Below, piece after piece: positions 8,018 through 59,612 of a stretch of DNA of 64,000 bases (position 1 is its first letter; each line of letters starts with the position of its first letter). The notes under the pieces are model-generated. The model saw only the letters and a program-made list of their open reading frames with translations, did no database searches and was not told the DNA's origin. Where the stretch lies: assembly GCA_023246355.1 (NCBI GenBank), contig JAHFIQ010000004.1, forward strand, positions 2,697 through 66,696, read 5' to 3'. A program made the translations under genes and the position numbers. This DNA is from Candidatus Uhrbacteria bacterium. Lineage in GTDB: Bacteria; Patescibacteriota; Patescibacteriia; UBA9934; GWF2-40-263.

Positions 8018-8092
8018 AGTAGCAAGTATCAAGTAGCACGTAGCAAGTATTTTCGAAGCGCATATACTTGCTACTTGATACATGCTACTTGC
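8018..8092. repeat. IVS-like long imperfect inverted repeat (AGTAGCAAGTA family), inverted orientation, no cargo
   Basis: arms agtagcaagtatcaagtagcacgtagcaagtat / atacttgctacttgatacatgctacttgc; loop contains gcttcgaaa (reverse complement of the ctccgaaa loop at other copies). Confidence 0.7.
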
Positions 8093-8103
8093 TTCTTTCC
8101 CTT

Positions 8104-8811
8104 ATGACCCACTCCAACTCACTTAAACCTTCCACGCTCGTCATCTCTGTCGGCGGCTCGCTCGTAGTTCCCAATGGTGGAATCGATGTGGAATTTCTCA
8201 AAGACTTTCGAGAGCTCATTCACAAACACGTGAAGCTCGGTTGGCGTTTTGTGGTCGTGGTTGGTGGTGGGGGCACAGCGCGTCATTATCAAGAAGCCGC
8301 ACGTGACGTCGGCAAACTCACCCGCGACGATCTTGATTGGCTGGGGATTCACTCGACGCGTTTGAACGGACACCTCATGCGCACCGTGCTTCGCGACGTG
8401 GCGCATCCCATCATGATCAAAGACCCGACTGGGTCGTTCCACCACTGGACCAAGCCCGTGCTGGTGGCGGCTGGATGGAAACCAGGCTGGTCCACCGATT
8501 ACGTGGCCACGCGTTTAGCCAAACGTCTCAAGAGCAAACTTGTGGTGAACCTTTCCAACATCGACTACGTCTACACCAAAGATCCACTCAAGCACAAAGA
8601 TGCTGAAGTCATCTGTAACATCACCTGGAAAGAGTTTCGTAAAATGGTCGGCAACACCTGGGACCCGGGCATGAATGTGCCGTTTGATCCCGTGGCCTCA
8701 CGCCTGGCGCATCATTCCAAAATTTCCGTGGCGATTTTGAATGGCAAAAATATTTCAAATCTGGATGGACTCCTAACCGGCGAGCGATTCATTGGAACCG
8801 TGATTGGTTGA
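8104..8811 (+). CDS. pyrH: UMP kinase, archaeal type (amino-acid kinase family)
   Basis: VISVGGSL...VVVVGGGGTARHY...GIHSTRLNG pattern of archaeal-type uridylate kinases; ATG 8104 lies just after the repeat. Confidence 0.6.
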   Translation: MTHSNSLKPSTLVISVGGSLVVPNGGIDVEFLKDFRELIHKHVKLGWRFVVVVGGGGTARHYQEAARDVGKLTRDDLDWLGIHSTRLNGHLMRTVLRDVAHPIMIKDPTGSFHHWTKPVLVAAGWKPGWSTDYVATRLAKRLKSKLVVNLSNIDYVYTKDPLKHKDAEVICNITWKEFRKMVGNTWDPGMNVPFDPVASRLAHHSKISVAILNGKNISNLDGLLTGERFIGTVIG

Positions 8812-8879
8812 CAAAAAAGATGAAATGGAAGAAGAATAACGGATCCTAGATTCATAGGATCCCTTCCAAGGAGCCAACC

Positions 8880-9764
8880 ATGAGGGTCGAATATGTTGTG
8901 GTGAGCGTCCCCTCGTTGAAGGGGACGCCAAGTGAAGATGCCTATCTTGTGGATGGTGAGGGAGGTGGAAAACCTTTCTTCGCCGCGATTGCCGATGGGC
9001 ATGGCGAGGAGGTGGATGAACGAGGTGATCACTTTGAGAGATCTCAGACGGTTGCGAGATTTTCTGGTCGTCTGGTGGGCAGCCTTCACGAACGATTCGT
9101 GCAGTTCCCTGATCCAACATACCTTCCAGACATCTTCGATGTGACGGCACAGGACCTCGATGGAGAGTTTCGTGCACTCACAGAGCGTCAGCACCTGATT
9201 GCATCACTGCGCGTCGGAGCCGTGGCGAGTTGCGTTACGGTCGTGGATGGCAGAATCCATCTGGCACAGACAGGCGACTGCCGGTTCTATGCGGCTTCGG
9301 ATTCTCCTCGAGGATTCATTCAGCTCTCGCGCGACCATGACTGCAACCATCCGGATGAACTTGCCCGACTGCAGCCGATCCTGACACAGGGGAAGTTCGT
9401 GATCTGGCCGCCGTTTCTAGACGAGTCTTCTCCTCCCGTTACTCGCAAGAGGCGGCTGAGTTATTACGTGGGTGAGAACGTGGTGGCTGGAATCCTTCCC
9501 ACCAGAACCTTCGGTGATTGGCGCTACCACCCAGCCGTGATTCACACCCCTGAGGTGAACAGCTTCGAGCTTGCTGCTGTGCCAGAAGGAACGGTGTTTG
9601 CCCTGTGCTCAGACGGTGGGAACCGCTATGTCGAGCATGTGTTGGGGCCGGTGGCTGGGCATTCGCACGAGATTCCGCTTTCAGCTCTGGCAGAGGCCAC
9701 CAAGACACGAATTGATATTCCTGGTGACGATGTGACGATCATCTATTTCCGGGTGTATCATTGA
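8880..9764 (+). CDS. PP2C-family Ser/Thr protein phosphatase
   Basis: ADGHG, GDCRFY (GDSR-like), LSRDH, TRTFGD, CSDG motifs in canonical order; AAGGAG SD. Confidence 0.75.
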   Translation: MRVEYVVVSVPSLKGTPSEDAYLVDGEGGGKPFFAAIADGHGEEVDERGDHFERSQTVARFSGRLVGSLHERFVQFPDPTYLPDIFDVTAQDLDGEFRALTERQHLIASLRVGAVASCVTVVDGRIHLAQTGDCRFYAASDSPRGFIQLSRDHDCNHPDELARLQPILTQGKFVIWPPFLDESSPPVTRKRRLSYYVGENVVAGILPTRTFGDWRYHPAVIHTPEVNSFELAAVPEGTVFALCSDGGNRYVEHVLGPVAGHSHEIPLSALAEATKTRIDIPGDDVTIIYFRVYH

Positions 9765-9802
9765 GCGGCTCTCGTTTTTGATCCTTCCACGCAGGAGGTT
9801 TC

Positions 9803-10045
9803 ATGCCCTCACCCAGTTCCGTTCGTGATCAGAACATGACCACCCCTGTCTGGCTTGGCACAGTGGTTCTCGTGGTCTGCATGGCCATCGTTTTCCTTTC
9901 TGAACAGTTCCTTCCGGTCAACCAGACACATGGTGTGATCTTGGATACTCTGAGGAGCTTTGTGACGAATCCATGGGGCTACGCCAAGCCATTGCTTGTG
10001 AGCCTGTTTGCCTTTTGGATCGCCCTGCGCATCTCCAACTTCTGA
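9803..10045 (+). CDS. small membrane protein, unknown function
   Basis: 80 aa, two hydrophobic helices, AGGAGG SD. Confidence 0.4.
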   Translation: MPSPSSVRDQNMTTPVWLGTVVLVVCMAIVFLSEQFLPVNQTHGVILDTLRSFVTNPWGYAKPLLVSLFAFWIALRISNF

Positions 10046-10096
10046 GCCTCTCGGCTCACACGGTCCCTCCATCCGAGGGATTTTCTATTTCTGAGT

Positions 10097-10117
10097 TGGA
10101 AGCCTGGCTCCCAACTG
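10097..10117. promoter_or_regulatory. perfect hairpin/palindrome GTTGGAAGCCTGGCTCCCAAC, copy 1 of 2
   Basis: near-identical copy at 29135-29157; lies in the rplJ upstream region. Confidence 0.4.
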
Positions 10118-10126
10118 GATAAAAAT

Positions 10127-10155
10127 TTGACACAAAAAGCCTCGTTCGCTATCCT
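10127..10155 (+). promoter_or_regulatory. sigma70-like promoter (TTGACA-17-TATCCT) inside the rplJ leader region
   Basis: hexamers read directly; the 240 nt leader before rplJ may also hold an L10 autoregulatory structure (not verified). Confidence 0.35.
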
Positions 10156-10286
10156 AGGCCTCGAACTGAAGATTTGCCGTAGACAACGAGCTGGCTTGGC
10201 CATAAGTCTCGTCGAGGTAAAAGGTTTCGGCCTTTTTCTACTGCGGCGCAAGTCAGCAGTTTTTTATACCTAAAGGTCGAACAACT

Positions 10287-10805
10287 ATGCCAAAAACACG
10301 TGCTCAGAAAGAAGAAATTCTGGACGAGCTCTCGGAGAAACTTTCACGCATCAAGTCCGCCGTGTTCACCTCGGTCTCTGGGTACACCATGGACGACGCC
10401 AATGCCCTGCGACAAAAAGGTCGTACACAAGGTGTCGAACTGGTGGTTGCCAAGAAAACCCTTCTCACACGAGCCCTTGAGAAAAATGGCCTCCAGGTGA
10501 AAGAAGAGGATCTGACAGGAAGCATTCTCACCACGCTTGGATACCAAGACGAGATCGCTCCTTCAAAGCTCATGGCCGCATTCACAAAAGATCGTGAAGG
10601 CATGAAGGTCATCGGTGGAATTTTGGAGGGGGTCTTCGTGGGGTCAGAGGCCATCAAACAGCTGGCCACCTTGCCAAGTCGCGAAGAGCTTCTCTCAAAA
10701 CTCGTTGGCTCGCTCAATGCTCCTGCCTCAGGGTTTGTGAATGTCCTTGCTGGAAATTTGCGTGGCCTTGTCCAAGTGCTCAATGCTATTGGTGCAGTTA
10801 AATAA
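10287..10805 (+). CDS. rplJ: 50S ribosomal protein L10
   Basis: 172 aa with a typical L10 N-terminus and length, followed by L7/L12. Confidence 0.9.
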   Translation: MPKTRAQKEEILDELSEKLSRIKSAVFTSVSGYTMDDANALRQKGRTQGVELVVAKKTLLTRALEKNGLQVKEEDLTGSILTTLGYQDEIAPSKLMAAFTKDREGMKVIGGILEGVFVGSEAIKQLATLPSREELLSKLVGSLNAPASGFVNVLAGNLRGLVQVLNAIGAVK

Positions 10806-10814
10806 TTTAAAAAG

Positions 10815-10881
10815 AGTAGCAAGTATTTAGTAGCAGGTAGCAAGTATACATGCTACTTGATACTTGCTACTCACTTACTAC
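10815..10881. repeat. IVS-like inverted repeat (AGTAGCAAGTA family), short-loop copy between rplJ and rplL
   Basis: agtagcaagtatttagtagcaggtagcaagtata / tgctacttgatacttgctactcac. Confidence 0.7.
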
Positions 10882-10889
10882 GCTTCCCT

Positions 10890-11288: not shown

Positions 11289-11291
11289 AAA

Positions 11292-11703: not shown

Positions 11704-11705
11704 AC

Positions 11706-24212: not shown

Positions 24213-24989
24213 ATGGACGAACTCAAAAAAGAACTGCAACACTTGGGGCTTTCTGATAAGGAAGCAAAGGTGTACTTGGCTGCCCTTGAACTTGGCCCAT
24301 CGCCTGTCCAGGACATCTCCCATAAAGCCCATGTGAACCGGGCGACGACCTATGTGATGATTGAGTCATTGGCTTCGCGCGGGCTCATGTCAACCTTTCA
24401 AAAAGGCAAGAAACGTTTTTACGTCTCCGAGAGTCCTGATCGACTGCTCTCGATCATTCAAATCCAGCAAAAAGAATTGGCAGAAAAAGAATCAGAGTTG
24501 CAAGGCGTGATGCCGCTGCTCACCAGCCTCTACAATGCCGAAGGTGCCAAGCCGCAGATTCGATACTTGGAAGGCATGGAAGGCGTGAAAACCGTTCGGG
24601 CGATTTTTGAAAAGCTGCCTGGTGACTTTATCGAGATCGCGCCACTGGACGATGTCCATGAAACAAAAGAGTTAATGGGAGAAGGGCGCGAAGAACATCA
24701 TGCGGTGCTACGACAGAAAGGCGCCAAGTATCGCGTGCTCGCCATCACCAAAAATACCGACCCGATGTGTTTGCCTGACATGGGAGAAGGGGAATGGCGC
24801 ATGCTGCCACCGGAAAAGTTTCCCATTCATGGGAGCATCGTGGTGCGTCGAGATTATGTGTTCCTGTTCTCATATCGTTCGTCGATTTTGTCCGTTGTGA
24901 TTCGTTCGCAGGAAATTGCCGATGCGATCCGTGCCCTGTTTGCCCTGGCGTGGGATGGGGCAAAGGGTTATCCCTCAAAGGGTTGTTAA
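24213..24989 (+). CDS. TrmB-family transcriptional regulator
   Basis: N-terminal wHTH LGLSDKEAKVYLAALELGPSPVQDIS plus a C-terminal sugar-sensor-like domain; AGGGA SD. Confidence 0.6.
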   Translation: MDELKKELQHLGLSDKEAKVYLAALELGPSPVQDISHKAHVNRATTYVMIESLASRGLMSTFQKGKKRFYVSESPDRLLSIIQIQQKELAEKESELQGVMPLLTSLYNAEGAKPQIRYLEGMEGVKTVRAIFEKLPGDFIEIAPLDDVHETKELMGEGREEHHAVLRQKGAKYRVLAITKNTDPMCLPDMGEGEWRMLPPEKFPIHGSIVVRRDYVFLFSYRSSILSVVIRSQEIADAIRALFALAWDGAKGYPSKGC

Positions 24990-24995
24990 AAAGAA

Positions 24996-25022
24996 GACAG
25001 ACCTGCGTGGTCTGTTTTTCGT
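24996..25022 (+). terminator. rho-independent terminator
   Basis: GACAGACC-tgcgt-GGTCTGT followed by TTTTCG. Confidence 0.6.
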
Positions 25023-25435
25023 TTCGTCTGTTGGTCGATGGAGTGGGGATGTGGAGAGAACGTGAGAGTGAGAGTTGTCTCTTGCTAGCTGCCGCCTGGG
25101 CAGATGTAGCAAGGGCAGAACCGCCTGGGATCTTCGTCGACAGCGTGTCGACGAGTCCTGGCCAACCGTGTTGCACGGAAGGCACAAGCGGAATGCAACT
25201 CATTCATCACCATCCTCTCTATCTCCATCACATCCTCCTCACCTTTGTCTGTCCGTTGGACTTATTGTTCGCCGCTCATGTTGAGAAACGACAAGACAAA
25301 CTAACAAGAAGGCTGGTTCTCGTCAAGAGATTCTGTTGGCGAACGTTGGCAAACAAAAAACTCCGACGACTGTCGAAGTTTTTTGCTACTCCTTGGGAGA
25401 GAGTTGGGTAATGAAACCCTCGAAGGGTAGTAGCA

Positions 25436-25516
25436 AGTAGTTAGTAGCAAGTAGCATGTATGTTCACTCCGAAAATACTTGCTACGTGCTACGTGATACT
25501 TGCTACTGCTCTCAGA
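25436..25516. repeat. IVS-like inverted repeat (AGTAGCAAGTA family) at the left junction of the GC-rich segment
   Basis: gtagtagcaagtagttagtagcaagtagcatgtat - gttcactccgaaa - atacttgctacgtgctacgtgatacttgctac. Confidence 0.7.
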
Positions 25517-25570
25517 GCGTCGCCCGACACGTCCTTTCCCCAGCAATGGTTTGAGAGCGTGTCAGGCAGA

Positions 25571-25598
25571 GAGCGCTAGTCACGTCGTTCGCGAACGA
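25571..25598. terminator. perfect 28 bp palindrome AGTCACGTCGTTCGCGAACGACGTGACT (high-GC-style terminator or operator)
   Basis: perfect dyad immediately 3' of the small minus-strand ORF; near-identical palindrome at 27335-27356. Confidence 0.45.
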
Positions 25599-25732
25599 CG
25601 TGACTAGATGATGCCGCGCAGGTGCGGGCCTTCCTCGAAGAGGAGCTTGATCGCGTAGACGGCGGAGAAGGCCATCATCGCATAGAGGACATGCTCGAGC
25701 TCGCACTTCGCGATCAGTTCAATGAAATACAT
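25595..25732 (-). CDS. small hydrophobic protein (45 aa), hypothetical
   Basis: ATG 5 nt after a perfect GGAGGT SD; MYFIELIAKCELEHVLYAMMAFSAVYAIKLLFEEGPHLRGII; shorter than the ORF-track cutoff. Confidence 0.3.
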
Positions 25733-25745
25733 GGGGACCTCCTAG

Positions 25746-25815
25746 TCCTAGCAGGACACGACCGGGGTCATGTTCTCTTAGGACTCGGCGATCGATTTCG
25801 TGTCGATCGCCGTCC
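25746..25815. repeat. ~70 bp upstream element R1 (island repeat family)
   Basis: cctagcaggacacga...atgttctcttagg...GGCGATCGA-tttcgtg-TCGATCGCC; about 87% identical to R3. Confidence 0.6.
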
Positions 25816-25956
25816 GTTGGTTTCTCACCGTGGAGGTTCTGCTCCCTCTGGGCTCACCGTCCGGTGGCCGAAGTTCTCCATTGCTGGATCGCTTCGACCA
25901 CCGGCATCGCAGGTGACGCGCCTGGTTTGAGTCCAGGAACTTGCGGCCGCGGGGAC

Positions 25957-27216
25957 CTACTTCTTCTTGCCCGCCGACTGCATGTCGTTGCGGATCTGGC
26001 GATCCTTCTCGGCGCGCGCTGCCATCTTTGCCAGCTTCCACGCCGGGGCGCCATTGCCGCTCCCGCCGGTCGCACCGCCGTTGCCGACGACGTCTCCGAA
26101 TCGCGGACGCAGGTTCCGGCTGGCCGCCTGGTACTTCAGCTCCTCGTCCATCATCGTCCGCATGGTCTCCTTGAGGGAGTACCCGCGGCCGAAGCGACGG
26201 ATGCAACGCTCGCCGAACGCGTGCCGCCACAGGTCTTTCGACCCGATGCGGCTTCCGTTCTGACGCTCGCGCATCGCACCGATTGGCGGCACCTGGGCCA
26301 CCGACTCGAGCACGAGGTTGCCGCATCCGCAGACGCACCGGAACGCGAGTCCCGACGCGGTGCTGATTCGACCGAAGGGATCGCTCCCCTCGGGCTTCAC
26401 GCTGGGGATCACCAGGATCAGCGGCGCGGACGCAGGGGAGGCCGACTTGCGGGCGGGGAGGACGAGGCCGGGCTTCACGGTCGCCTTGGGCTTGCGGCTC
26501 TCGACGATCTCGCTCACGCGGGCCTGGAGGGCACCCGCGCTGCGGAACAGGAGATCGACACCGAAGCCCGAGAGCTCCGACGGCGTTTCTCCATTCCACC
26601 CGATCACCTTCACGACCTCGCGGTCGTCGGTGAGACGGGCGAGCTCGTCGGCGGCCTTGCACGCGGCGGTGACCGCGGAGAGGTAGTCGGCCTCCATGGC
26701 GCGGGGGTGATCGCTCCACCTCTCCATGATCAGGTCGGTGCGGCTGAAGCCGAACTGCCGGACCAGGACGTGGTCGTCGATCTCATTCACCGCGTCCGCG
26801 AGGCGCGAGAGCCTGTCCGTGTAGACCGCCTCGCCGACGGTGTCGTCGTCGAACTCGTACTCGCTTTCCTCGCTGTCGGCCTCGATCTCCTCGTCGGACG
26901 CCTCTTCCCAGCTCTCGTACGAGCCGGCGAAGTTGTCCCACTCGGTGGCCGTCAGGTAGACCTCGCGGGACTGGACGGACGCGCTCGCGCGCATGCCGCC
27001 GTTCTGCCGACGGTTCAGCTCGCGCTGCCACGCCACGTCCTGCAGAGCCTGGTCCTCGTCGACCATGTCGAGGTTCTCGAGCGCGATGTCCGAGTAGTCG
27101 GGCGAGTTCGCGTCGCCTTCGCTCGTGACGTGGGAAGTGATCCCACGGCGATTGAACTTGATGCCGAGTTCGCGCACGCCTTCGGAGGCGAGGATGGGGC
27201 TGGGGGATCGGGACAT
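25957..27216 (-). CDS. hypothetical acidic protein (419 aa), no recognisable domain
   Basis: ATG 7 nt after AGGAGA; balanced composition unlike the Arg/Pro-rich shadow ORFs on other frames; acidic region (SDEEIEADSEESEYEFDDD); CVCGCG Cys cluster; basic C-terminus GKKK. Confidence 0.5.
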   Translation of the reverse strand: MSRSPSPILASEGVRELGIKFNRRGITSHVTSEGDANSPDYSDIALENLDMVDEDQALQDVAWQRELNRRQNGGMRASASVQSREVYLTATEWDNFAGSYESWEEASDEEIEADSEESEYEFDDDTVGEAVYTDRLSRLADAVNEIDDHVLVRQFGFSRTDLIMERWSDHPRAMEADYLSAVTAACKAADELARLTDDREVVKVIGWNGETPSELSGFGVDLLFRSAGALQARVSEIVESRKPKATVKPGLVLPARKSASPASAPLILVIPSVKPEGSDPFGRISTASGLAFRCVCGCGNLVLESVAQVPPIGAMRERQNGSRIGSKDLWRHAFGERCIRRFGRGYSLKETMRTMMDEELKYQAASRNLRPRFGDVVGNGGATGGSGNGAPAWKLAKMAARAEKDRQIRNDMQSAGKKK

Positions 27217-27254
27217 GAGAATCTCCTGGTTCAGTGGGGGGGGGAAGTAACCTT

Positions 27255-27330
27255 GGGCAAAGCCCTAGCAGTTCACGATTTAAGATCATGGACTCTTAGG
27301 GCTGGGCGAGTCGACTCACGTACGAATCGA
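27255..27330. repeat. ~70 bp upstream element R2 (diverged copy)
   Basis: ccctagcag..cacgat..atcatg..ctcttaggg then GGGCGAgTCGA...TCGAtCGCCC hairpin. Confidence 0.5.
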
Positions 27331-27334
27331 TCGC

Positions 27335-27356
27335 CCACCACGTCGCTCGCGAGCGA
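27335..27356. terminator. perfect 22 bp palindrome CACGTCGCTCGCGAGCGACGTG
   Basis: 3' of the small gene at 27395-27602; paralog of the 25571-25598 palindrome with symmetric T/C and A/G changes. Confidence 0.45.
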
Positions 27357-27394
27357 CGTGGCCGTCGTTCCCTTCGCCGTTGGCGTCTAGCCGT

Positions 27395-27602
27395 TCATCG
27401 AGCGGTCGCGGTCTGCAGGCGGCGGGCCTGCTCCATGCGGCGGACGAAGCGGGGAAGGATCACGGGGACGGCGGGGCGCGGCGGCGGGGTGGTGCCGGTG
27501 CAGAAGATCATGCCGGTCGTGAGAAAACGATCGGCGTCCTCGTCGGTGAAGAAGCGGTCGGTGGCGCGGGCCACCATGAGGATCGTGGGGGAAGGGGGCA
27601 TG
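27395..27602 (-). CDS. small hypothetical protein (69 aa)
   Basis: ATG 7 nt after GGGGAG; the longer ORF to 27715 lacks an SD. Confidence 0.35.
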
Positions 27603-27804
27603 GGAAGACTCCCCTGGTCGGTTGGTTCGGGTCCGACGCAGGAATTCGGAGAAGAATGGTCCAGTGACCTACCCGAAGGTTGGTGTAGACCTGGAACAAC
27701 GGGCATATGGATCAAGTAAGCGTAAGCCTAGTTGGGCCATTTGTTGTTCCTCCTCACGACCGCTTTTGGCGGCCAGAGGTTTCTCTCTCCTCCGAGTTCC
27801 TGTG

Positions 27805-27875
27805 TCAGATTTCCCTAGCAGGACACGATCATCGATCATGTTCTCTTAGGGTTCGGCGATCAATTTCGTGTTGAT
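27805..27875. repeat. ~70 bp upstream element R3
   Basis: cctagcaggacacgatcatcgatcatgttctcttaggg...GGCGATCAA-tttcgtg-TTGATCGCC (compensatory change relative to R1). Confidence 0.6.
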
Positions 27876-28012
27876 CGCCGCCCGTGTGCACCTAGCGTTT
27901 TTTCGGAAGGAGCAGGTGCGCTCCTTCCAACCACCCTTTCGGTTTCCGTTGTTCGCATCCTGTCTGGGACGCGGTAACGGTGGGCTGTGGTGCCCGTGTT
28001 GCTCGCCTCGCG

Positions 28013-28657
28013 CTAGCCGTTGGTTCCGGTTCCTTCGCCCTCGTCCGCCTCGTCCTCATCGGACTCGGCGGGTTCGGGGGCGGCGGTTCCGGCGGCGATC
28101 GCGGCGGCCTCGGCGCGGCGGGCTTCCTCGAGGTCGGCCTTGAACTGCGCGTAGCCTTCCTCGCCGGCGATGAGCTCGAGGATCTGCAGCGAGGTGCGGA
28201 TGTGGAGGCCGTGCTTGCCGATGATCGCGCGCGCGACGGTCTTCTCGGTCTCCTGCGTCGGTGCGTTGAACACCGGCGCGAGGGTCTCGATCAGCACGTC
28301 ACGCTCGCCACGACCGAGCTTCACCGGGCGACCCTCGGGGGTCTTCTTGTCGAGCGCCACGCCTTCCTTGGCCGCCTTCATCTCCGGGATCCAGCTCTGG
28401 AAGTACCACTCGCGGCTGCCGGCTTCGAGCTCGACCTTGGCCATGGCCCACCCGATCTGCACGATCGCGAAGGCGGACTGGCGGGACGAGATCGCGAAGT
28501 CGAACAGCTTCTGTCCGTGGTCCTTGAGCGGCTCGTAGAGACCGACGATGAGTTGGACCGCGAGGTCCGCTTCGTCGCGGGACACCACGGGCGTGGTCTG
28601 GCGCGGAGCCTGGCGGGGGGCGACGGCACTGTTGCGGGTCGGGAGCGTGAGAGACAT
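28013..28657 (-). CDS. hypothetical protein (214 aa) with acidic Ala-rich tail
   Basis: ATG 7 nt after AGGAG; no recognisable motifs. Confidence 0.5.
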   Translation of the reverse strand: MSLTLPTRNSAVAPRQAPRQTTPVVSRDEADLAVQLIVGLYEPLKDHGQKLFDFAISSRQSAFAIVQIGWAMAKVELEAGSREWYFQSWIPEMKAAKEGVALDKKTPEGRPVKLGRGERDVLIETLAPVFNAPTQETEKTVARAIIGKHGLHIRTSLQILELIAGEEGYAQFKADLEEARRAEAAAIAAGTAAPEPAESDEDEADEGEGTGTNG

Positions 28658-29134
28658 TGGGACTCCTGTTCTTGCGGTTGCGGCCGTGTGGCCAGGGAAC
28701 TGAATCGCTCGACGGTCAGAAATGATCCCGTCAGCCTACTGGAGGCCAGCCGTCGCCCTTGCGGGCTATGGCTGGTAAATAGTGGTGCATTGACCGATCC
28801 GAGGATCTGGTGTGCACCGTGGAGATCGGGTGTGTGGGGTGAGTGAGCCAAGGCCCAGTCAATCCACTTGATCTCCTCCGCTCATCGCGGCCGAAGCGTT
28901 GATGAGACGGTTTTACTCTCTCCTCCATGAGGCTGATGGCATCAGAACAAAAACCGGTTGTTGAATACATCGTCCAGAGAGAGATGCGTACAACAACCGG
29001 CCTTTGTGAAGGTTACGATTGATGGCCATTTACTTGGCCTGAGTACTCTCTCCCCAGAAAGTGTTTCGTTGTAAGCTTTGTGTGATCTTGTATGGACGCA
29101 GTCTATCATATTTTGTCAACTTTGTCAAGACTTG

Positions 29135-29157
29135 TTGGGAGCCAGGCTCCCAACTCT
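29135..29157. promoter_or_regulatory. perfect hairpin/palindrome GTTGGGAGCCAGGCTCCCAAC, copy 2 of 2
   Basis: same dyad as 10097-10117, in the 350 bp non-coding region upstream of holB. Confidence 0.4.
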
Positions 29158-29250
29158 AAGCTAAAATTAGCTTAAAATAGCAATACACTCAGTGTTTACA
29201 ATACTGGACATCACAGGGCAATTTCAGCCTCGTGTTATACTAGTGCCTGT

Positions 29251-30150
29251 ATGGGACTTTTTTCTTCCCTCATCGGACACACAAAAGCAAAAGACGTTCT
29301 TTCAAGGATGATCGAACACAAAACCCTTCCACATGCCCTGCTTTTTGTCGGGCCAGATCACGTGGGAAAGACTCTGCTTGCCAAAACGCTGAGTCGTCAG
29401 GTTCTGGGGGTGCAGAATCTTGAGACTCAGCCTGACTATCTCGAGCTCAAACGTTTGGATGATGAAAAAACAGGCAAGCGCAAGTCCAATATCTCTGTGC
29501 GTCAGGTTCGAGAATTGGTGGGAAGGCTATCCATGACCTCGTTTACTGGAGGAGCCAAAGTGATTTTTGTAGAAGAGGCACATAGGCTCTCCATGGGCGG
29601 GGCGAACGCGCTTTTGAAAACATTGGAAGAACCAAAAGGCCAAACGCTTTTTGTCTTGCGAGCTCCGAGCGTTGAAGACGTTCCTGCGACTATTGCATCT
29701 CGTTGTCAGGTCATGCATTTCACGGTGGTCTCTGCATCTGCAATTGTTGATGGGCTTGTGCGAGCTGGATTCAGTCAAGCCGATGCACAAGAGGCGGCGC
29801 TTCACAGCGAAGGTCGGCCAGGACTCGCGCTGCGCTATCTCAAAGACAGTGAGTATCGAGCGCAGCGTGAAACCGATCGAGTGCAAGCAGAGACGTTTTT
29901 GGCAGCGAGTTTGCCAGAGCGTTTGCGCCTGGTGACAGAGCTCATTCCAAAAGCAGAAGTGAACAGTGCGAGTCGTTTGCAAAAAGTGATCACCGAATTG
30001 CAGATGGTCGCTCGTCGAGATCTTCTTGCCACCTCATCTACCTCCTCCACCTTATCCACCTTTCTCGAGCGTCTCTCAGAAGTCCGCCAAGCCGCACGTC
30101 ACAACATCAACCCTCATTTAGCTCTTGAGCACATTGCTCTTGCCACATAA
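29251..30150 (+). CDS. holB: DNA polymerase III delta-prime subunit
   Basis: LPHALLFVGPDHVGKT (Walker A-like), VIFVEEAHRL, SRCQV box; carries an in-frame TSSTSSTLST insert encoded by the CCACCT minisatellite. Confidence 0.8.
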   Translation: MGLFSSLIGHTKAKDVLSRMIEHKTLPHALLFVGPDHVGKTLLAKTLSRQVLGVQNLETQPDYLELKRLDDEKTGKRKSNISVRQVRELVGRLSMTSFTGGAKVIFVEEAHRLSMGGANALLKTLEEPKGQTLFVLRAPSVEDVPATIASRCQVMHFTVVSASAIVDGLVRAGFSQADAQEAALHSEGRPGLALRYLKDSEYRAQRETDRVQAETFLAASLPERLRLVTELIPKAEVNSASRLQKVITELQMVARRDLLATSSTSSTLSTFLERLSEVRQAARHNINPHLALEHIALAT

Positions 30151-30151
30151 T

Positions 30152-31198
30152 ATGAAACGTTTTTCACTCATTGCTCTTTCCCTCATCTTGATCGGCGCTG
30201 GCTGCTCAAGTTCCTCATCTTCTGGTTCAGACGGCGGAATTTTTTCCTCCGCAAACGCTGGTCAGGACTGGACACAGACCGTGATCGTTCCCACCGCCTC
30301 AGGCATCGGCACACTCGCGACCACGGATGTGCTCAACATGGAAATGGATCCAGAGGACGATACGTTCATGTACATCGGCACGCGCCAAAACGGGGTGCTC
30401 TACTCGCAAGACTCGGGTATCTCGTGGATGCAACCTGAGAGTGATGCTCTTTCCGACGGACTGATTTATCACATCGAGGTGGACCCCACAGATGTCTGTA
30501 CCGTGTATGTTGCCAAGGGTTCTCGTTTGTATAGCACACGAGATTGTATGCGCTCGTTTGATTCAGAAACGTACGTGGATAACAGAAGTGGCGTGTCAGT
30601 TGTGCAAGTGGCTGTGGACTGGTTCAGCGCAAGTACGATTTGGATTGGTCTCTCAAACGGAGATGTACTCAAGAGCACAGACTCAGGTGACACGTGGCAG
30701 ACGGTTCTCAAAACAGGAGAGGAAATTTCCAACATCCTGATTCACACAACCGACTCAAGAAACGTTCTCGTTTCGACCTTTGGAAAAGGCTTGTACAAAA
30801 CAGAGGACGCGGGTGCTGATTGGGATGAAGTTGATGGCGGACTTTCTGATCTGAAAAAATCTGAAACCGTGTACAGCCTGATTCAAAGCGATGATTCATC
30901 TGTGGTAATCGCAGCCAATGGGTATGGACTTGTGCGCTCAACAGATTTTGGTTCGACATGGGAGGCGATTGAGCTGGTGACCTCCGCCGGTCAGGTAACG
31001 ATCCGTGCTGTGGGCATGGACGTCACGGATCCTGACACGCTTTACTATGCTGCCAACGCCACGTTCTATCATTCAGACGATGCAGGCTCCACCTGGGACA
31101 CAGAAAAACTTCCGTCCTCTCGCGTGCCACGAGCCATGCTGGTTGACCCTGATGAGCCGGCGGTGTTATATATCGGAGTCGCGAGTGCGACGGATTAG
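30152..31198 (+). CDS. lipoprotein with BNR/Asp-box repeats (Ycf48/sialidase-like beta-propeller)
   Basis: lipobox LIGAGCSS; five SxDxGxTW repeats. Confidence 0.65.
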   Translation: MKRFSLIALSLILIGAGCSSSSSSGSDGGIFSSANAGQDWTQTVIVPTASGIGTLATTDVLNMEMDPEDDTFMYIGTRQNGVLYSQDSGISWMQPESDALSDGLIYHIEVDPTDVCTVYVAKGSRLYSTRDCMRSFDSETYVDNRSGVSVVQVAVDWFSASTIWIGLSNGDVLKSTDSGDTWQTVLKTGEEISNILIHTTDSRNVLVSTFGKGLYKTEDAGADWDEVDGGLSDLKKSETVYSLIQSDDSSVVIAANGYGLVRSTDFGSTWEAIELVTSAGQVTIRAVGMDVTDPDTLYYAANATFYHSDDAGSTWDTEKLPSSRVPRAMLVDPDEPAVLYIGVASATD

Positions 31199-31201
31199 TG
31201 T

Positions 31202-31756
31202 ATGCATGCACTTCTGATTCAAAAAAAACCATCGTTTGATAGCGCGCTTGAGCATCTCCAAAAAGAGTTGGGACAGTTGCGCACCGGACGTGCCACGCCA
31301 GCACTTGTGGAAAATATTTCGGTTTCTGCCTACGACGCATTCATGGAGATCAAGGGCTTGGCTTCCATTTCCACAGCCGATGCCAAAACGATTGTGATTG
31401 ATCCGTGGGACAAGAGCCTGCTCAAGAATATCGAAAAGGGCATTCGCGATGCCGGCGTTGGGCTTTCACCGGTCGTGGATAGTGATGTGATTCGCATCAT
31501 GATGCCGCAAATGACCGAGGACAACCGCAAGGCCATGGTCAAAAAGATGAAAGAGTTTTTAGAAGAGACACGCGTGTCGCTGCGCCAGGTTCGTGAAGAA
31601 ATTCGTGGAGAAGTCGTTGCCATGGAAAAAGACAAGGCGATCAGTGAAGATGAAAAGTTCAAGCTGTTTGATGAGGTTGATAAGCTCACCAAAGAATACG
31701 TGGATCGTGTGGAAGAAACGGGTGACAATAAAGAAAAAGAAATAATGACCGTTTAA
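31202..31756 (+). CDS. frr: ribosome recycling factor
   Basis: 184 aa; typical RRF pattern across the length. Confidence 0.9.
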   Translation: MHALLIQKKPSFDSALEHLQKELGQLRTGRATPALVENISVSAYDAFMEIKGLASISTADAKTIVIDPWDKSLLKNIEKGIRDAGVGLSPVVDSDVIRIMMPQMTEDNRKAMVKKMKEFLEETRVSLRQVREEIRGEVVAMEKDKAISEDEKFKLFDEVDKLTKEYVDRVEETGDNKEKEIMTV

Positions 31757-31854
31757 GTAGCAAACTGTTTAAGTAGCAAGTAGTTAGTAGCAAGTAGCAT
31801 GTATATCTGCTCCGAAAATACTTGCTACATGCTACTTGATACTTGCTACTTCGC
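31754..31854. repeat. IVS-like inverted repeat (AGTAGCAAGTA family), longest empty copy
   Basis: taagtagcaaactgtttaagtagcaagtagttagtagcaagtagcatgtat - atctgctccgaaa - atacttgctacatgctacttgatacttgctacttcgc. Confidence 0.7.
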
Positions 31855-31856
31855 TT

Positions 31857-33188
31857 ATGAACACAAACGTCACCATGGAAAAACTCGTTGCCCTCGCGAA
31901 GTCGCGGGGGTTCGTGTTTCCGGGCTCGGATATTTATGGAGGATTGGCTAACTCTTGGGATTACGGACCTCTTGGGGTGGAGTTGAAAAAGAACATTGTC
32001 GATGCCTGGTGGAAGCGCTTTGTTAGTTCGCGGCGCGATATGGTTGGCATCGACGCGGCGTTGGTGATGAATCCGAAAGTTTGGGAGGCGTCGGGGCATG
32101 TCGCTACGTTCACCGATCCGCTCGTGGAATGCAAAACCTGTCATGAACGCTATCGTGCTGATCAAATTGATTTGAATGCGGCTTGCCAGAAATGCGGCAA
32201 CAAAGGCACGTTCACCGATCCAGCGGCGTTTAACATGATGTTGAAAACGTGGCTTGGTCCGAAGGAGGATGCAAGCGCGGTCGCTTATTTCCGTCCCGAA
32301 ACGGCTCAAGCGATGTTTGTGGATTTCCCCCAAGTTCTTCAAAGCTCGCGCAAACGCGTTCCGTTTGGTATTGCTCAAGTCGGCAAAGCCTTTCGCAACG
32401 AGATCACGCCAGGAAATTTTATTTTCCGTACACGCGAGTTCAACCTAATGGAATTTGAGTATTTTATTCACCCATCGGAGTGGGAAAAGTGGTTCGAATA
32501 CTGGCTAGAAGAGATGAAGGCTTGGCTGAGATTTCTCGGGGTCAAGGATGATGAATTGGTTTTCCACGAAATTGAAGACGGTGAACGCGCGCACTACTCC
32601 AAGCGCACCGTCGATATTGAATATTATTATCCGTTTGGTCTGAAGGAATTGTATGGTTTGGCTTACCGCACCGATTTTGATTTAAAACTGCACATGGAAT
32701 CCTCAGGGAAGGATTTGCGCTATACCGACCCTCAGACGAACGAGAAGTATCTCCCGCACGTCATTGAGCCGGCTTTCGGTGTGGATCGATCGGTTCTTGT
32801 GACGCTGCTTTCAGCCTACCACGAAGAAGAAGCCCCGACGTCAGAGGAAGGGGAAACAGATAAACGTGTGGTGCTGAAACTTCCCAAAGCGCTTGCGCCG
32901 TTTAAGATCGCGGTGTTGCCGCTTTCCAAAAAAGACGAACTCGCTGTGGTCGCAGGACCTCTCGCAGATCGTTTGCGCCAGAGGTGGGCGACCGATTACG
33001 ACGAAACCCAATCCATTGGCAAACGTTATCGACGTCAAGACGAAATCGGCACGCCGTACTGCGTCACGGTAGATTTCGACACGCTCACAGATCAGGCCGT
33101 CACCGTCCGCGATCGAGACACGATGAAACAGGATCGAGTGAAGATAGATGATTTGGAAGTTTATTTTTCAGAGCGCCTCGCAGGCTAA
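31857..33188 (+). CDS. glyQS: glycine--tRNA ligase (dimeric class II)
   Basis: MEKLVALAKSRGFVFPGSDIYGGLANSWDYGPLG N-terminus and class II motifs. Confidence 0.9.
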   Translation: MNTNVTMEKLVALAKSRGFVFPGSDIYGGLANSWDYGPLGVELKKNIVDAWWKRFVSSRRDMVGIDAALVMNPKVWEASGHVATFTDPLVECKTCHERYRADQIDLNAACQKCGNKGTFTDPAAFNMMLKTWLGPKEDASAVAYFRPETAQAMFVDFPQVLQSSRKRVPFGIAQVGKAFRNEITPGNFIFRTREFNLMEFEYFIHPSEWEKWFEYWLEEMKAWLRFLGVKDDELVFHEIEDGERAHYSKRTVDIEYYYPFGLKELYGLAYRTDFDLKLHMESSGKDLRYTDPQTNEKYLPHVIEPAFGVDRSVLVTLLSAYHEEEAPTSEEGETDKRVVLKLPKALAPFKIAVLPLSKKDELAVVAGPLADRLRQRWATDYDETQSIGKRYRRQDEIGTPYCVTVDFDTLTDQAVTVRDRDTMKQDRVKIDDLEVYFSERLAG

Positions 33189-56761: not shown

Positions 56762-56880
56762 GATTCAAACAAAAAATGAGGATTGCTCCTCGTTTTTTGT
56801 TTGAAGGTCTTGCCAAAGTGTGGTTTTATTGTTAGTCTGAAACTGCCATTTGGCAAAACTCTGCAACCTACGGAGGACAC

Positions 56881-57036
56881 ATGTCCTTTCTTCTCTCCGG
56901 TGAAATTACCAACGAGCTCTTGGACGGCGGCTACATCACGGACGGCGGGACCCCGATCATCTCCGGCGGTGGCGGCGCCCAGCTCGTCGACGGCGGCCGC
57001 GTCAGCCAAGGCAAGACCGATAGCGGAACGCTCTGA
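56881..57036 (+). CDS. small Gly-rich protein (51 aa), unannotated in the ORF track
   Basis: ATG 6 nt after a perfect GGAGG SD; own terminator at 57082-57110; MSFLLSGEITNELLDGGYITDGGTPIISGGGGAQLVDGGRVSQGKTDSGTL. Confidence 0.4.
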   Translation: MSFLLSGEITNELLDGGYITDGGTPIISGGGGAQLVDGGRVSQGKTDSGTL

Positions 57037-57081
57037 TCAACCTCCAAGGCTGATCTCACACCAACGCTCCCCACGCACCCC

Positions 57082-57110
57082 GAGTCCACACTCGGGTTTT
57101 CTATTTGTGC
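57082..57110 (+). terminator. rho-independent terminator
   Basis: CCCGAGT-ccaca-ACTCGGG followed by TTTTCTATTT. Confidence 0.65.
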
Positions 57111-57124
57111 TAAACTAGAATCCT

Positions 57125-57601
57125 ATGATGAAAAAAGGCATGAAGGCTCCGGGGTTTTCACTTCCGGATCAGGAGGGGACCGTTCACTCACTCGCCGATT
57201 ACAAGGGCCAGTGGGTGCTGCTGTATTTTTATCCTAAAGACGATACGCCTGGTTGTACAAAAGAAGCCTGCATGATTCGTGACTCCTGGCCGAAGTTTAA
57301 AAAACTTTCCCTGAACGTTTTTGGTGTGAGTGTGGACTCGGTGAAGAGTCATGGAAAGTTTGTGAAGAAGTATGACCTGCCGTTTATCCTATTGGCTGAC
57401 GAGGACAAGGCGATCGTCAAAAAGTACGGCGTGTGGGGAAAGAAAAAGTTCATGGGTCGGGAGTATCTGGGAACGAATCGGATGTCGTTTCTGATCGACC
57501 CAACAGGCAAGATCGCCAAAGTGTACGAGAATGTGAAGCCAGAGGCCCATGCAGATGAGGTGCTCACAGACCTGAAAATACTCACCAAAAAAGCAGGCTA
57601 A
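57125..57601 (+). CDS. bcp: thiol peroxidase Bcp / peroxiredoxin Q
   Basis: FYPKDDTPGCTKEAC active-site motif. Confidence 0.85.
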   Translation: MMKKGMKAPGFSLPDQEGTVHSLADYKGQWVLLYFYPKDDTPGCTKEACMIRDSWPKFKKLSLNVFGVSVDSVKSHGKFVKKYDLPFILLADEDKAIVKKYGVWGKKKFMGREYLGTNRMSFLIDPTGKIAKVYENVKPEAHADEVLTDLKILTKKAG

Positions 57602-57617
57602 GCCTGCTTTTTCCTTA
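57590..57617. terminator. bidirectional terminator
   Basis: AAAAAGCAGGC-taa-GCCTGCTTTTT. Confidence 0.7.
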
Positions 57618-58637
57618 CTCCTTTCGCATGGCTCGTGCCATCTGTTCAAATTCTGTCCCGAGTTTCTTCTGTCGCGCTGGAAGGATTTGTTTGTAGACGC
57701 GTTCTTGATCGGCTTTGATACGAGCAAGCTTGGTCTTGAGCATCTTGCCTTTTTCGCCAAACCATTTTTGTACGAACCCAAGCTGTGCATACTCTGCATC
57801 TGCATCTTGCTGTTCTTGTCTTAAGATCATCCATTTTTTCTCAAGAAGCATTTGTTGTCTTGCCTCAACGCTTTCCTGTGATGGCTCACCCATTTTGGTG
57901 ATGACCTCGTGGCTGCCCCCAACGGCTCCTGTTTTTTTGAGTGCGATGTCTGATGGCCCCAGCACGTTGTCATGGGATCCGCCTAATCCACCGGTGGCTT
58001 TGAGCCGAGCGTCCAACAGTGTTCGCTGAGACTCACGCAACGTCTTACGCGACCCTGGGTTTTTTTCAAGGTCTTTGAGTACCTGCATGTACGCCTGGTG
58101 GGGAATGAATTCTGTTGCTGAGATTCGATCTGCATCTTGATCATTTACTTCTTCCAGTTTATTTTCAAGTTCTTGAGAGATTTCTTCTCCCCGTGTGAGC
58201 AAATAAGCTACATCAGCGCCGCTGGCAAGTTGCGCTAAAACTTTTTCACGCGCCTCAAACAAAGCAACCGCTTTGAGTTGTTCTTCAACTTGTTTTGCAT
58301 GAAAACGTGTCTCGTTGGCGAGCGTGGCCTGTTTATCTTCAACAAGACCTCGTCGTTGCTGTGCAAGTTCTTCCAACTCCATGAGCAGATGTCTCTTGTA
58401 TTCATCCATGTCTGCCCCTGTTTTGATTCTTGCTTCAACAAGTTCAATCGCCTGTTGTCGAGCGTTTTGCTCGCGTCGAATAACGTGTTCACGTTTGGGA
58501 ACCGTCCAGATGACGCCCTTGGTATCCACCACATCATCAGGTCGATCAAGTGGTACTCGCGCTGGTCTGGTGATGAGATCTTGATCTACATGCTGTTCTC
58601 CGTGTGGGCTCATATTTTGTGTATACAAATTACCCAC
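57615..58637 (-). CDS. coiled-coil protein, unknown function
   Basis: 340 aa of heptad-like, E/K/Q/L-rich sequence. Confidence 0.45.
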   Translation of the reverse strand: MGNLYTQNMSPHGEQHVDQDLITRPARVPLDRPDDVVDTKGVIWTVPKREHVIRREQNARQQAIELVEARIKTGADMDEYKRHLLMELEELAQQRRGLVEDKQATLANETRFHAKQVEEQLKAVALFEAREKVLAQLASGADVAYLLTRGEEISQELENKLEEVNDQDADRISATEFIPHQAYMQVLKDLEKNPGSRKTLRESQRTLLDARLKATGGLGGSHDNVLGPSDIALKKTGAVGGSHEVITKMGEPSQESVEARQQMLLEKKWMILRQEQQDADAEYAQLGFVQKWFGEKGKMLKTKLARIKADQERVYKQILPARQKKLGTEFEQMARAMRKE

Positions 58638-58708
58638 TCAGTATAGTCTGCCCAGGCTCTTGACGCCAAGGGTCAGTGGATAAACCACCATGGTATAATT
58701 CTGTCCGT

Positions 58709-59152
58709 ATGAAGGTGATCCTGCTCTCAAGCGTCAAGCCGCTTGGAAAAGAAGGGGACGTGGTCGAGGTGTCGGACGGGCACGCACGCAACTTTTTGTT
58801 CCCACAAAGTCTGGCGGTACCAGCAACGGACGAGGCCCTGAAGAAAAAGGCCGAGCGAGAAAAAATCGCCTCAGGCAAAGCCAGCAAGGCCCTTTCAGCG
58901 GCTGGAGACTTGGCGCACAAATTGGAAGGACACGAAGTGTTGCTTGAAGAAAAGGTCAGCGACGGAGGGGTGTTCTTTGCTGCGGTCACAGGAAAGATGA
59001 TTGCCTCAGCGCTCAAGAAAGAGGGTTTTCCGGTCGAAACGGATTGGATCCACATCGAGAGTCCGATCAAAGAACCAGGAGACTACACAGCTTCTGTGTC
59101 CCTGCCTCACGGCTTTGAAGCCGAAATAAAAATCATTGTCGAAGAGAAGTAG
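58709..59152 (+). CDS. rplI: 50S ribosomal protein L9
   Basis: MKVILLSSVKPLGKEGDVVEVSDGHARNFLFP N-terminus. Confidence 0.85.
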   Translation: MKVILLSSVKPLGKEGDVVEVSDGHARNFLFPQSLAVPATDEALKKKAEREKIASGKASKALSAAGDLAHKLEGHEVLLEEKVSDGGVFFAAVTGKMIASALKKEGFPVETDWIHIESPIKEPGDYTASVSLPHGFEAEIKIIVEEK

Positions 59153-59185
59153 CAAGTATCAAGTAGCATGTAGCAAGTATGCTCA
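59152..59185. repeat. IVS-like element, left arm (with cargo gene)
   Basis: agtagcaagtatcaagtagcatgtagcaagtat. Confidence 0.7.
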
Positions 59186-59562
59186 TAGGAATGAATGGAA
59201 ATGAAGGTCAGATAAAGAATTTTACAGATCTTGTTACATGGCAGAAAGGACATACTCTCGTCATCACAGTCTACAAACTAACGAAAAATTTTCCAGCAGA
59301 TGAACGATACGGACTGGTAAGCCAAATGAGACGCTGTTCTGTTTCAATCACCTCTAACATTGCTGAGGGTTTTGGAAGAAGAACAGGAAAAGAAAAAATT
59401 CGATTTTATGATATAGCCATTGGTTCTTTGTTCGAGCTTCAAAATCAGGTTCTCCTCTCGCAGGGGCTTGGATATCTTGATGAATCTCAAATTGCTCTTA
59501 TCCAACCACTTGCTTTAGAGGTGAATCGTTTATTGAATGGCTTAATCAAAACAGCCATCTAG
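59179..59562 (+). CDS. four-helix-bundle protein of the 23S rRNA intervening-sequence (S23p) family
   Basis: ERYGLVSQMRRCSVSITSNIAEGFGRR...FYDIAIGSLFEL hallmark of the PF05635/TIGR02436 family; flanked by inverted-repeat arms. Confidence 0.7.
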   Translation: MLIGMNGNEGQIKNFTDLVTWQKGHTLVITVYKLTKNFPADERYGLVSQMRRCSVSITSNIAEGFGRRTGKEKIRFYDIAIGSLFELQNQVLLSQGLGYLDESQIALIQPLALEVNRLLNGLIKTAI

Positions 59563-59565
59563 CTA

Positions 59566-59612
59566 ATATACTTGCTACTTACTACTTGATACTTGCTACT
59601 TTCCTTTATGAA
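59566..59612. repeat. IVS-like element, right arm
   Basis: atacttgctacttactacttgatacttgctacttt; the pyrG start lies at its edge. Confidence 0.7.

Follow-up and report, generated by a model that had tools for sequence, protein, structure and literature searches.

Inverted heptamer-array hairpins at five sites in a Candidatus Uhrbacteria genome, one enclosing a protein gene of the 23S intervening-sequence type

Introduction

The 64,000-nucleotide (nt) stretch of Candidatus Uhrbacteria DNA analysed here (assembly GCA_023246355.1, contig JAHFIQ010000004.1, forward-strand positions 2,697 to 66,696; below, the window, with positions counted from its first letter) carries long imperfect hairpins between protein-coding genes, one of which encloses a gene of the PF05635/TIGR02436 family. 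Members of this family are encoded in the intervening sequences (IVSs) of 23S rRNA. What are these hairpins, and is their likeness to IVSs more than superficial? An earlier note on this DNA had proposed a mobile, IVS-related hairpin module, with the start codons of the downstream genes lying inside the hairpin arms. We find that the observation is real but needs corrections. The element is best read as an IVS-type cassette outside rRNA; the mobile, IVS-related module is partly supported, whereas the start codons inside the arms are not. Homologs of ribosomal protein L10 place the organism in Candidatus Uhrbacteria, Patescibacteria/Candidate Phyla Radiation (CPR).

Results

Five dispersed copies of one hairpin element

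The window contains five hairpin elements (E1-E5), instead of the six sites announced in the title of the earlier note. Four copies, 58-81 bp long, lack an open reading frame (ORF), and the fifth (E5) encloses the PF05635/TIGR02436 gene exactly as its loop. Each element is composed of two inverted arms of about 4.5 heptamer units, in which the 7-nt unit GTAGCAA is repeated in tandem with the variants GTATCAA, GTAGCAT/C and GTAGTTA. Searching the whole window for GTAGCAAGTA with at most one mismatch gave 35 matches against 1.2 expected, a number reached in none of 100 shuffles, and the claim that the units exceed the expectation from composition is thus upheld. All 35 matches are confined to five clusters, in each of which plus-strand matches come first and minus-strand matches after them. 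A windowed period-7 scan found ten arrays in the 64 kb, every one an arm of E1-E5; it recovered nine of the ten arms, missing the left arm of E2 and counting the right arm of E1 twice.

Folding each locus, a check suggested with the original observation, gives stable long stems at all five. The stems of E1-E4 reach -32 to -50 kcal/mol (z = -5 to -8.8) and fold about equally on both strands, and the arms of E5 pair across the 384-nt insert (z = -6). Over 80 nt, the non-repeat loop included, E3 and E4 have about 90% identity, and E1 is a further copy of this element, oppositely oriented. E1, E3 and E4 have the order of variant units and the loop in common at unlinked sites, and E2 has lost the loop. 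This similarity, which extends into the loop, indicates that the five loci are, as had been proposed, dispersed copies of one sequence and not independent microsatellites. The loop ending CTCCGAAAATAC, which had been ascribed to three empty copies, is exact in E3 and E4 only, and E2 has no such loop; the reversed loop reported for the copy at 8018 is indeed present in E1 as CTTCGAAAATAC on the opposite strand. Rfam at gathering thresholds gave no match, and no rRNA, in the whole window. At relaxed thresholds over 25300-29200 the sole match, a miRNA precursor at E3 (E = 0.38), was rejected as chance.

Positions of the elements and true start codons

E1 (8018-8095) occupies the spacer between a holin-like gene and pyrH, directly after the terminator-like hairpin and T-run of the holin-like gene (7997-8017, plus strand, as are all features below unless stated). 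Its left arm (8018-8049) reads AGTAGCAA GTATCAA GTAGCAC GTAGCAA GTA, its loop (8050-8064) shows CTTCGAAAATAC when read on the minus strand, the reverse of the orientation in E3 and E4, and its right arm (8065-8095) is built of TACTTGC-type units, with the stem ending at 8089. E2 (10815-10872) is a short-loop hairpin in the rplJ-rplL spacer, with arms at 10815-10846 and 10847-10872. E3, refined to 25428-25508, has its left arm at 25428-25460, a loop at 25461-25475 ending in CTCCGAAA, and a right arm at 25476-25508 that no start codon follows. E4 (31771-31851, with part of a further unit at 31757-31765) lies in the frr/glyQS spacer, with its left arm at 31771-31803, a loop at 31804-31818 that also ends in CTCCGAAA, and its right arm at 31819-31851. 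The left arm is preceded by a duplicated GTTTAAGTAGCAA (31751-31763) containing the frr stop codon; within 31751-31782 the two 13-nt direct copies are 16 nt apart, and the second copy opens the arm.

E5 (59147-59601) is located between rplI and pyrG. The first unit of its left arm (59147-59181) provides the rplI stop codon TAG (59150-59152), and the last, GTATG, provides the start of the cargo ORF (59179-59562, 127 aa); the right arm follows at 59567-59601. Compared with the corresponding region of a more distant relative (locus L126, 3932-3975), 59120-59152 has a 10-nt deletion by which the rplI stop codon of the ortholog was lost, and ribosomal protein L9 now ends at the TAG that the first left-arm heptamer contains.

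Family-model matches uphold the flanking genes named in the earlier note (holin-like/pyrH, rplJ/rplL, frr/glyQS and rplI/pyrG). The true starts of the downstream genes, however, are the ATG codons at 8104 (pyrH), 10890 (rplL), 31857 (glyQS) and 59609 (pyrG), all of them backed by conservation in relatives and by agreement with the family models. Their distances from the stem are 15, 18, 6 and 8 nt, respectively, so that they are located 6-18 nt beyond the right arms; the only ORFs that extend into the arms are artificial ones with TTG starts. No GGAGG occurs ahead of these starts, at E1, E2, E4 and E5 alike.

The suggested preference for translation genes also has to be toned down, since it concerns five cases in one small CPR genome, of which E3 adjoins no such gene, and cassettes elsewhere occupy accBC, thyA-folA, aminoacyl-tRNA synthetase, efflux and restriction-like operons. 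E3 follows a TrmB-like gene and its terminator and faces the 3' end of minus-strand ORFs. The region beyond it, 25700-28900, has 57-69% GC against about 50% for the genome; its minus-strand ORFs (25957-27216 and 28013-28657) reach about 0.9 in third-position GC and have no Pfam or NCBIfam match, and the region may be a foreign island. We considered E3 as the boundary of a structured RNA and rejected this, the GC-rich downstream stretch being minus-strand coding sequence.

The protein encoded within E5

The cargo was identified by profile search as a member of PF05635 (E = 6e-36) and TIGR02436 (E = 3e-34), in agreement with its first assignment. It is a four-helix-bundle protein without a known catalytic domain. 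The nearest solved structure is Xanthomonas XCC0516 (PDB 2GSC), with five chains in the entry, and a paper on Coxiella describes XCC0516 as a homopentamer (PMC4990558). The cargo and its L126 ortholog are 83% identical, with about 0.10 nonsynonymous (dN) and 1.7 synonymous (dS) substitutions per site; the resulting dN/dS of about 0.06 argues that the protein is functional and under purifying selection.

The cargo has its four-helix-bundle fold family in common with Avd (PF22296; PDB 4DWL), the accessory protein of diversity-generating retroelements (DGRs), of which bAvd is also a pentamer. Membership in the Avd group is not indicated: the cargo matches the bAvd model with E = 6e-9 but scores 36.8, below the cutoff of 40, and scores 25.1 against a cutoff of 80 with the NCBIfam DGR-Avd model (NF033474). 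Moreover, unlike a DGR Avd gene, the gene in E5 has rplI and pyrG as neighbours, with no adjacent reverse transcriptase or template/variable repeat.

The arm-gene-arm layout in other genomes

The layout of E5 is not a peculiarity of this genome. The three CPR cargo homologs (L126, L127 and L129) are all bracketed by inverted period-7 arrays, with the left array ending in GTATG, whose ATG is the start codon, and the right array starting a few nt after the stop codon. A metagenome scan added 80 further PF05635 loci, and statistics were computed on 74 distinct loci and 72 neighbouring control ORFs. Nearly all metagenomic loci repeat the layout with locus-specific units, such as GAATTAT/GAATCAT, GTATTAA/GTATTAT, TAGAATG/TAGAATA, GTAGCTA and GTAGTAA, the last left-arm unit often overlapping the ATG and the stop codon often abutting or overlapping the first right-arm unit. 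Self-identity of the flanks at lag 7 is 0.56 upstream and 0.51 downstream, against 0.25-0.35 at other lags and 0.32 in the controls. In addition, the median arm-pairing score is 12 for the PF05635 loci versus 6 for the controls, and a score of at least 14 is reached by 27 of the 74 loci and by none of the 72 controls.

The same arrangement is found in plasmids of Cyanobacteria, Bacteroidota and Chloroflexota. PF05635 genes with such arms occur in plasmids of Nostoc (CAATTCG), Dolichospermum (CGTAATT/TGGAATT), N. punctiforme (GTCGGAG), Planktothrix (CCCCAAT/CGTAAAT), Gloeocapsa, Bernardetia (TTAGTGA) and Chlorohelix. In the cyanobacterial plasmids, the left array and the ATG are set apart by a few nucleotides that include a Shine-Dalgarno-like sequence. 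GC-rich viral contigs display the layout with TGAGGCG-type units, and a cyanobacterial locus (L102) has GTAGCAA arms around a family member of 24% identity. In Xanthomonas (X. campestris and X. sacchari assemblies), the XCC0516-family gene lies in the accB-accC spacer between GGGAATC arrays, the right one ending at the accC ATG.

What stays constant across these loci is the 7-nt period and the correspondence of the two arms, typically with 3-6 units in each; the unit sequence changes. Within a locus both arms use one unit type, which differs between loci, and the heptamer-arm layout is general for PF05635 genes across phyla. Gene-carrying copies have the orientation of their neighbours (co-directional with the downstream gene in 9/9 annotated cases) and no evident promoter of their own. 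Such a general layout appears not to have been described before; in the library searched, only the Coxiella paper (PMC4990558) was found to link PF05635 or IVSs with heptamers, and none to link PF05635 with heptamer arms in general. Together with the heptamers of the Coxiella IVS, it makes the link to the 23S-IVS family stronger than first guessed.

Several plasmid loci deserve separate mention. In plasmid pTS1 of Treponema saccharophilum (L224, 215-760), CTCTCCG-type arrays around a four-helix-bundle gene are direct, an exception to the inverted arrangement. At five other plasmid loci (L222, L225, L227, L228 and L229), PF05635 cassettes are found in operons resembling defence or restriction systems (helicase-related protein/N6 methylase; DUF1156/Swt1-HEPN) and in a resistance-nodulation-division (RND) efflux operon. 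The contigs with close PF05635 homologs are mostly short (about 1 kb), which may reflect breaks that the repeat arms cause in short-read assemblies.

ORF-less forms and the order of units

Many ORF-less heptamer hairpins are present in CPR contigs, often with the unit type of the gene-carrying copy of the same contig. The unit type is common within a genome and different between genomes, and some contigs contain two types (L199 and L130). A direct intermediate is found in L129 at 5310-5456, which has kept its two arms, the start codon ATG and a C-terminal piece of the ORF (...VYRLVNGIISFVS*). An intact copy, P0027, lies 1 kb away, and its end (...VYRLVNGLISFVS) and the remnant differ in a single residue. 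ORF-less hairpins can therefore arise by internal deletion. Moreover, E1, E3 and E4 form a subfamily of their own with a common loop, which argues that miniatures also multiply as such.

The identity of the arms is 0.62 when they are aligned in the best register. Shifting the alignment by 7 lowers it to 0.52, an alignment out of phase gives 0.28, and shuffling the order of units gives 0.60. Complementarity thus comes mostly from arrays of the same unit and not from mirrored order. As the excess from mirrored order is marginal (0.62 vs 0.60), base-by-base covariation of a fixed helix is not claimed.

The exact unit GTAGCAA has little value as a tracer. In the 596 Gb scanned, about 70 chance 17-mer matches are expected, and the wide spread of this unit alone is therefore no evidence of homology. 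A phmmer search with the cargo against the ORFs of 120 genome loci with (GTAGCAA)n arrays gave no match, and the family hidden Markov model (HMM) found only L102 among them; L005, located at the end of a contig, was spotted by eye. Plain (GTAGCAA)n arrays in public genomes thus mostly lack an enclosed gene.

Gain, loss and constraint in relatives

Loci L210-L214, from relatives with 86-88% L10 identity and the same synteny, lack E1 and E2. In three such relatives the rplJ-rplL spacers are 26-49 nt long and free of a hairpin, and in two of the three (L212 and L213) the holin-pyrH spacer measures 23-24 nt and the pyrH ATG directly follows the terminator T-run, an empty site for E1. Since these near relatives have the same gene order and neither element, E1 and E2 were recently gained or lost. 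E5 and the rplI-cargo-pyrG arrangement, on the other hand, are retained in the more distant L126. The module thus behaves as a gained or lost insertion, and no target-site duplication is visible in the comparison of filled and empty sites at E1 and E2.

Between the window and L126, the right arm of E5 with the pyrG leader is identical at 39/41 positions and the left arm at 25/32, the right arm and leader being the most conserved part of the element. This is far above the expectation from saturated synonymous sites and indicates that the arms are constrained.

The relatives also carry direct arrays of C/T-rich 7-8-nt units: L210 at 3300-3370 and 5525-5552, L212 at 5522-5572, and L213 at 640-700, 5525-5556 and upstream of the minus-strand gene at 6391. 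These Uhrbacteria arrays (CCACCTA/ACCTACA/TTCCNNN) end at the starts of genes without a Shine-Dalgarno sequence. Their CCACCT core has the sense of the 3' tail of 16S rRNA and is not complementary to it.

Discussion

A probable IVS-type cassette in transcription units

On balance, we favour the reading that the five loci are copies of one IVS-type hairpin cassette in transcription units, with E5 as the full form and E1-E4 as ORF-less miniatures, and we regard it as probable. In the full form, a PF05635 gene would be enclosed by an inverted heptamer array before it and the complementary array after it, and its start and stop codons would lie at the stem top. As a selfish cassette it would reside in short spacers inside transcription units, and the miniatures would spread or persist on their own. 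By analogy with the IVSs of rRNA, host RNase III probably excises the cassette from transcripts by cutting the 28-37-bp stem. This cleavage would remove the element, free the cargo mRNA and separate the flanking cistrons, and it would leave the downstream gene a short pyrimidine-rich (C/U-rich) leader without a Shine-Dalgarno sequence. Such a leader would suit these genomes, because most of their genes have no Shine-Dalgarno sequence and many have direct C/T-rich 7-8-mer arrays before the ATG. The 7-nt period may derive from slippage-driven growth and homogenisation of arms selected only for length and mutual complementarity. Slippage is favoured over a sequence-specific protein site, as the period is kept, the unit is free, and complementarity comes mostly from same-unit arrays.

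Several observations weigh against this explanation. The stems are imperfect, with periodic mismatches, and the origin of their complementarity in same-unit arrays implies that selection for one precise helix is weak. The case for RNase III cleavage is one of analogy, and no rnc gene or motif was found in the 64-kb window. E3 lies outside any obvious operon spacer, and no 23S universal motif occurs in any PF05635 locus fetched, none of which is located in rRNA. The loci examined yielded neither a transposase nor a target-site duplication nor an excision footprint. Moreover, relatives have direct heptamer or octamer arrays at the corresponding spacers, and some arrays may therefore arise locally.

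Likeness to 23S rRNA intervening sequences

The closest known counterparts are the 23S rRNA IVSs of Leptospira, Coxiella burnetii and others, in which inverted ends form a long stem with a PF05635 ('S23p') ORF in the loop, like E5. These IVSs have a sporadic distribution that suggests horizontal spread, as here, and short versions without an ORF are common. In the Coxiella 23S IVS, three GACAGAT units and a degenerate repeat directly precede the ATG of S23p, and RNase III cuts at the start of the first repeat (PMC4990558). In CPR bacteria, rRNA genes carry 23S_rRNA_IVP ORFs and short IVS-like inserts (PMC11270868). Our elements have the closing long stem and, in E5, the PF05635 loop ORF, but not the rRNA insertion site: all five copies are located between protein-coding genes, in mRNA spacers, and not in rRNA helices 25/45. 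Furthermore, strong purifying selection acts on the cargo, in contrast to the Coxiella ORF, for which decay is reported. A figure legend on CRISPR-linked proteins in a study on CRISPR discovery (PMC10910872) includes '23S rRNA IVP'; flanking periodic arrays might explain such a link.

Local repeats, transposon-like elements and terminators as less likely alternatives

The alternative that survives best is that the arrays are local simple-sequence repeats. Heptamer leaders without a Shine-Dalgarno sequence would be born by slippage as landing pads for ribosomes or S1/Csp or as regulators, and the inverted partner would evolve in place as an anti-leader. Its model is the TAACTGA repeats of Beggiatoaceae, direct heptamers upstream of start codons, found also in Cyanobacteria and Bacteroidetes and ending a few nt before the starts (MacGregor 2015, PMC4679880). 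Like our right arms, these repeats have a period of 7 and end a few nt before the starts of genes that lack a Shine-Dalgarno sequence, as the majority of genes in the present genomes do. The array type extends to the cyanobacterial short tandemly repeated repetitive (STRR) heptamers, reportedly described by Mazel et al. in 1990, and horizontal spread is suspected for TAACTGA/STRR repeats, which occur in Cyanobacteria and Bacteroidota. An effect of repeats of this kind on translation is offered as speculation in a Nostoc preprint. The explanation would also account for the right arm and leader being the best conserved part, and for the direct C/T-rich 7-8-mers (ACCTACA.., CCACCTAA.., four copies of TTCCNNN) right before the matching starts in relatives.

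The right arms of E1, E2, E4 and E5 fit this type of leader, but E3 has no downstream start codon, and every array here has an inverted partner; the TAACTGA repeats are mostly one-sided, with a single inverted case, enclosing no gene, in the Maribeggiatoa genome. Local growth does not predict the common loop and variant-unit order of E1, E3 and E4 at unlinked sites in both orientations, nor a unit type common within genomes and differing between them. A deletion derivative of the ORF-carrying form exists, and the position of PF05635 ORFs exactly between the arms in many phyla is left unexplained. We therefore consider local repeats, as an account of the whole, rather improbable.

If instead the hairpins were elements like repetitive extragenic palindromes (REPs) or palindrome-associated transposable elements (PATEs), they would be non-autonomous and moved in trans by a Y1 (HUH) transposase with its gene elsewhere, such as a REP-associated tyrosine transposase (RAYT) or the TnpA of IS200/IS605, with the PF05635 gene as a mere passenger, frequently landing in hairpin loops. 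Hairpin ends, small copies dispersed through intergenic spacers in both orientations, and the lack of a visible target-site duplication at the two comparable sites suit such elements, as does the GTAG in the unit, which we take to resemble the conserved REP tetranucleotide. However, no transposase was identified at the loci examined, and none of the ORFs scanned in the window was noted as transposase-like. The start and stop codons of the CPR ORFs are built into the arm ends, which is unexpected of a passenger; the units vary freely (GAATTAT, GTATTAT, GGGAATC, CAATTCG and others), which argues against a recognition hairpin for a sequence-specific Y1 enzyme; and REPs are not built of tandem heptamers. 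This explanation is very improbable.

Other miniature elements provide a similar comparison. The Correia elements (nemis) of Neisseria and the enterobacterial repetitive intergenic consensus sequences (ERIC, or intergenic repeat units, IRUs) of enterobacteria are small, dispersed near-palindromes that are co-transcribed, form long double-stranded RNA, serve as RNase III substrates and affect mRNA processing. They have defined terminal inverted repeats, target-site duplications and transposase-bearing relatives, but neither a tandem-heptamer structure nor a PF05635 partner. E1-E4 resemble MITEs (miniature transposable elements with inverted repeats) as small, non-coding, dispersed inverted repeats, with presence or absence among close relatives for E1 and E2. 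They differ in the lack of a target-site duplication at the two sites compared and of a transposase-encoding parent, the partner encoding a four-helix-bundle protein only.

Transcription terminators or attenuators, suggested by stable stem-loops just past stop codons, are scarcely credible and in effect excluded by the lack of a T-run (U-run in RNA) after the stems and by their placement: E1 is immediately downstream of a canonical terminator, E2 lies inside rplJ-rplL, conserved gene pairs enclose E5 and its orthologs, a terminator scan of 24700-32200 reports neither E3 nor E4, and 28-37-bp stems with 15-nt loops are unlike intrinsic terminators.

A wider reading of the IVS-type cassette

The IVS-type cassette can be taken a step further, to a reading that we hold to be unlikely but put forward tentatively. 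PF05635 genes and inverted heptamer arrays might form one ancient, cross-phylum selfish cassette, with a pentameric protein reading the 7-nt-periodic arms, one unit per subunit. The protein would be needed for maintenance or spread of the cassette or for control of its own expression, and 23S IVSs, ORF-less hairpins, Xanthomonas GGGAATC pairs and part of the STRR/TAACTGA-like repeats would be its products or remnants. The GGGAATC heptamers, of which about 70 convergent (inverted) pairs are reported in X. campestris (Rehm et al. 2015, PMC4692102), resemble E1-E5, from what is described in passages of that paper, in being tandem, often inverted, intergenic and variable in length between related genomes. 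The unit differs from GTAGCAA in being G-rich and, according to the same passages, was studied as a G-quadruplex former; those returned by a term search of the paper do not connect the repeats with PF05635.

The arm-ORF-arm layout, with its 7-nt period, its start and stop codons at the stem top and its ORF-less derivatives inside essential operons, links four things so far unconnected and each unexplained. These are the ORF-carrying 23S IVSs; the PF05635/TIGR02436 'four helix bundle protein' family, which is very large and related to DGR Avd; the bacterial heptamer repeats (STRR, GGGAATC pairs and TAACTGA); and the spacer hairpins of reduced CPR genomes. It also explains the TTG-extended mis-annotation of downstream genes, and it raises testable questions on RNase III cutting of the stems, binding of the protein to the arms, and movement without a transposase.

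Heptamer arrays in other contexts

Two further kinds of array were noticed. In Waterburya metagenome-assembled genomes (L001 751-790, L002 3582-3620, L004 1556-1600, and L028), (GTAGCAA)n is followed by a common sequence of about 35 nt (TTTTACCTCTCGTTAAAACAAGAGGATTGAAAC), which is another dispersed repeat with an internal hairpin. In three CPR genomes, the thymidylate synthase gene contains an in-frame heptamer array, (AAAGTCA)n or GTATNNN (L192 788-832, L181 794-835 and L194 807-838), and these loci also carry a PF05635 cassette between thyA and folA. The array is translated into an SQKSKVKSQK-like peptide at the equivalent position of the protein in all three.

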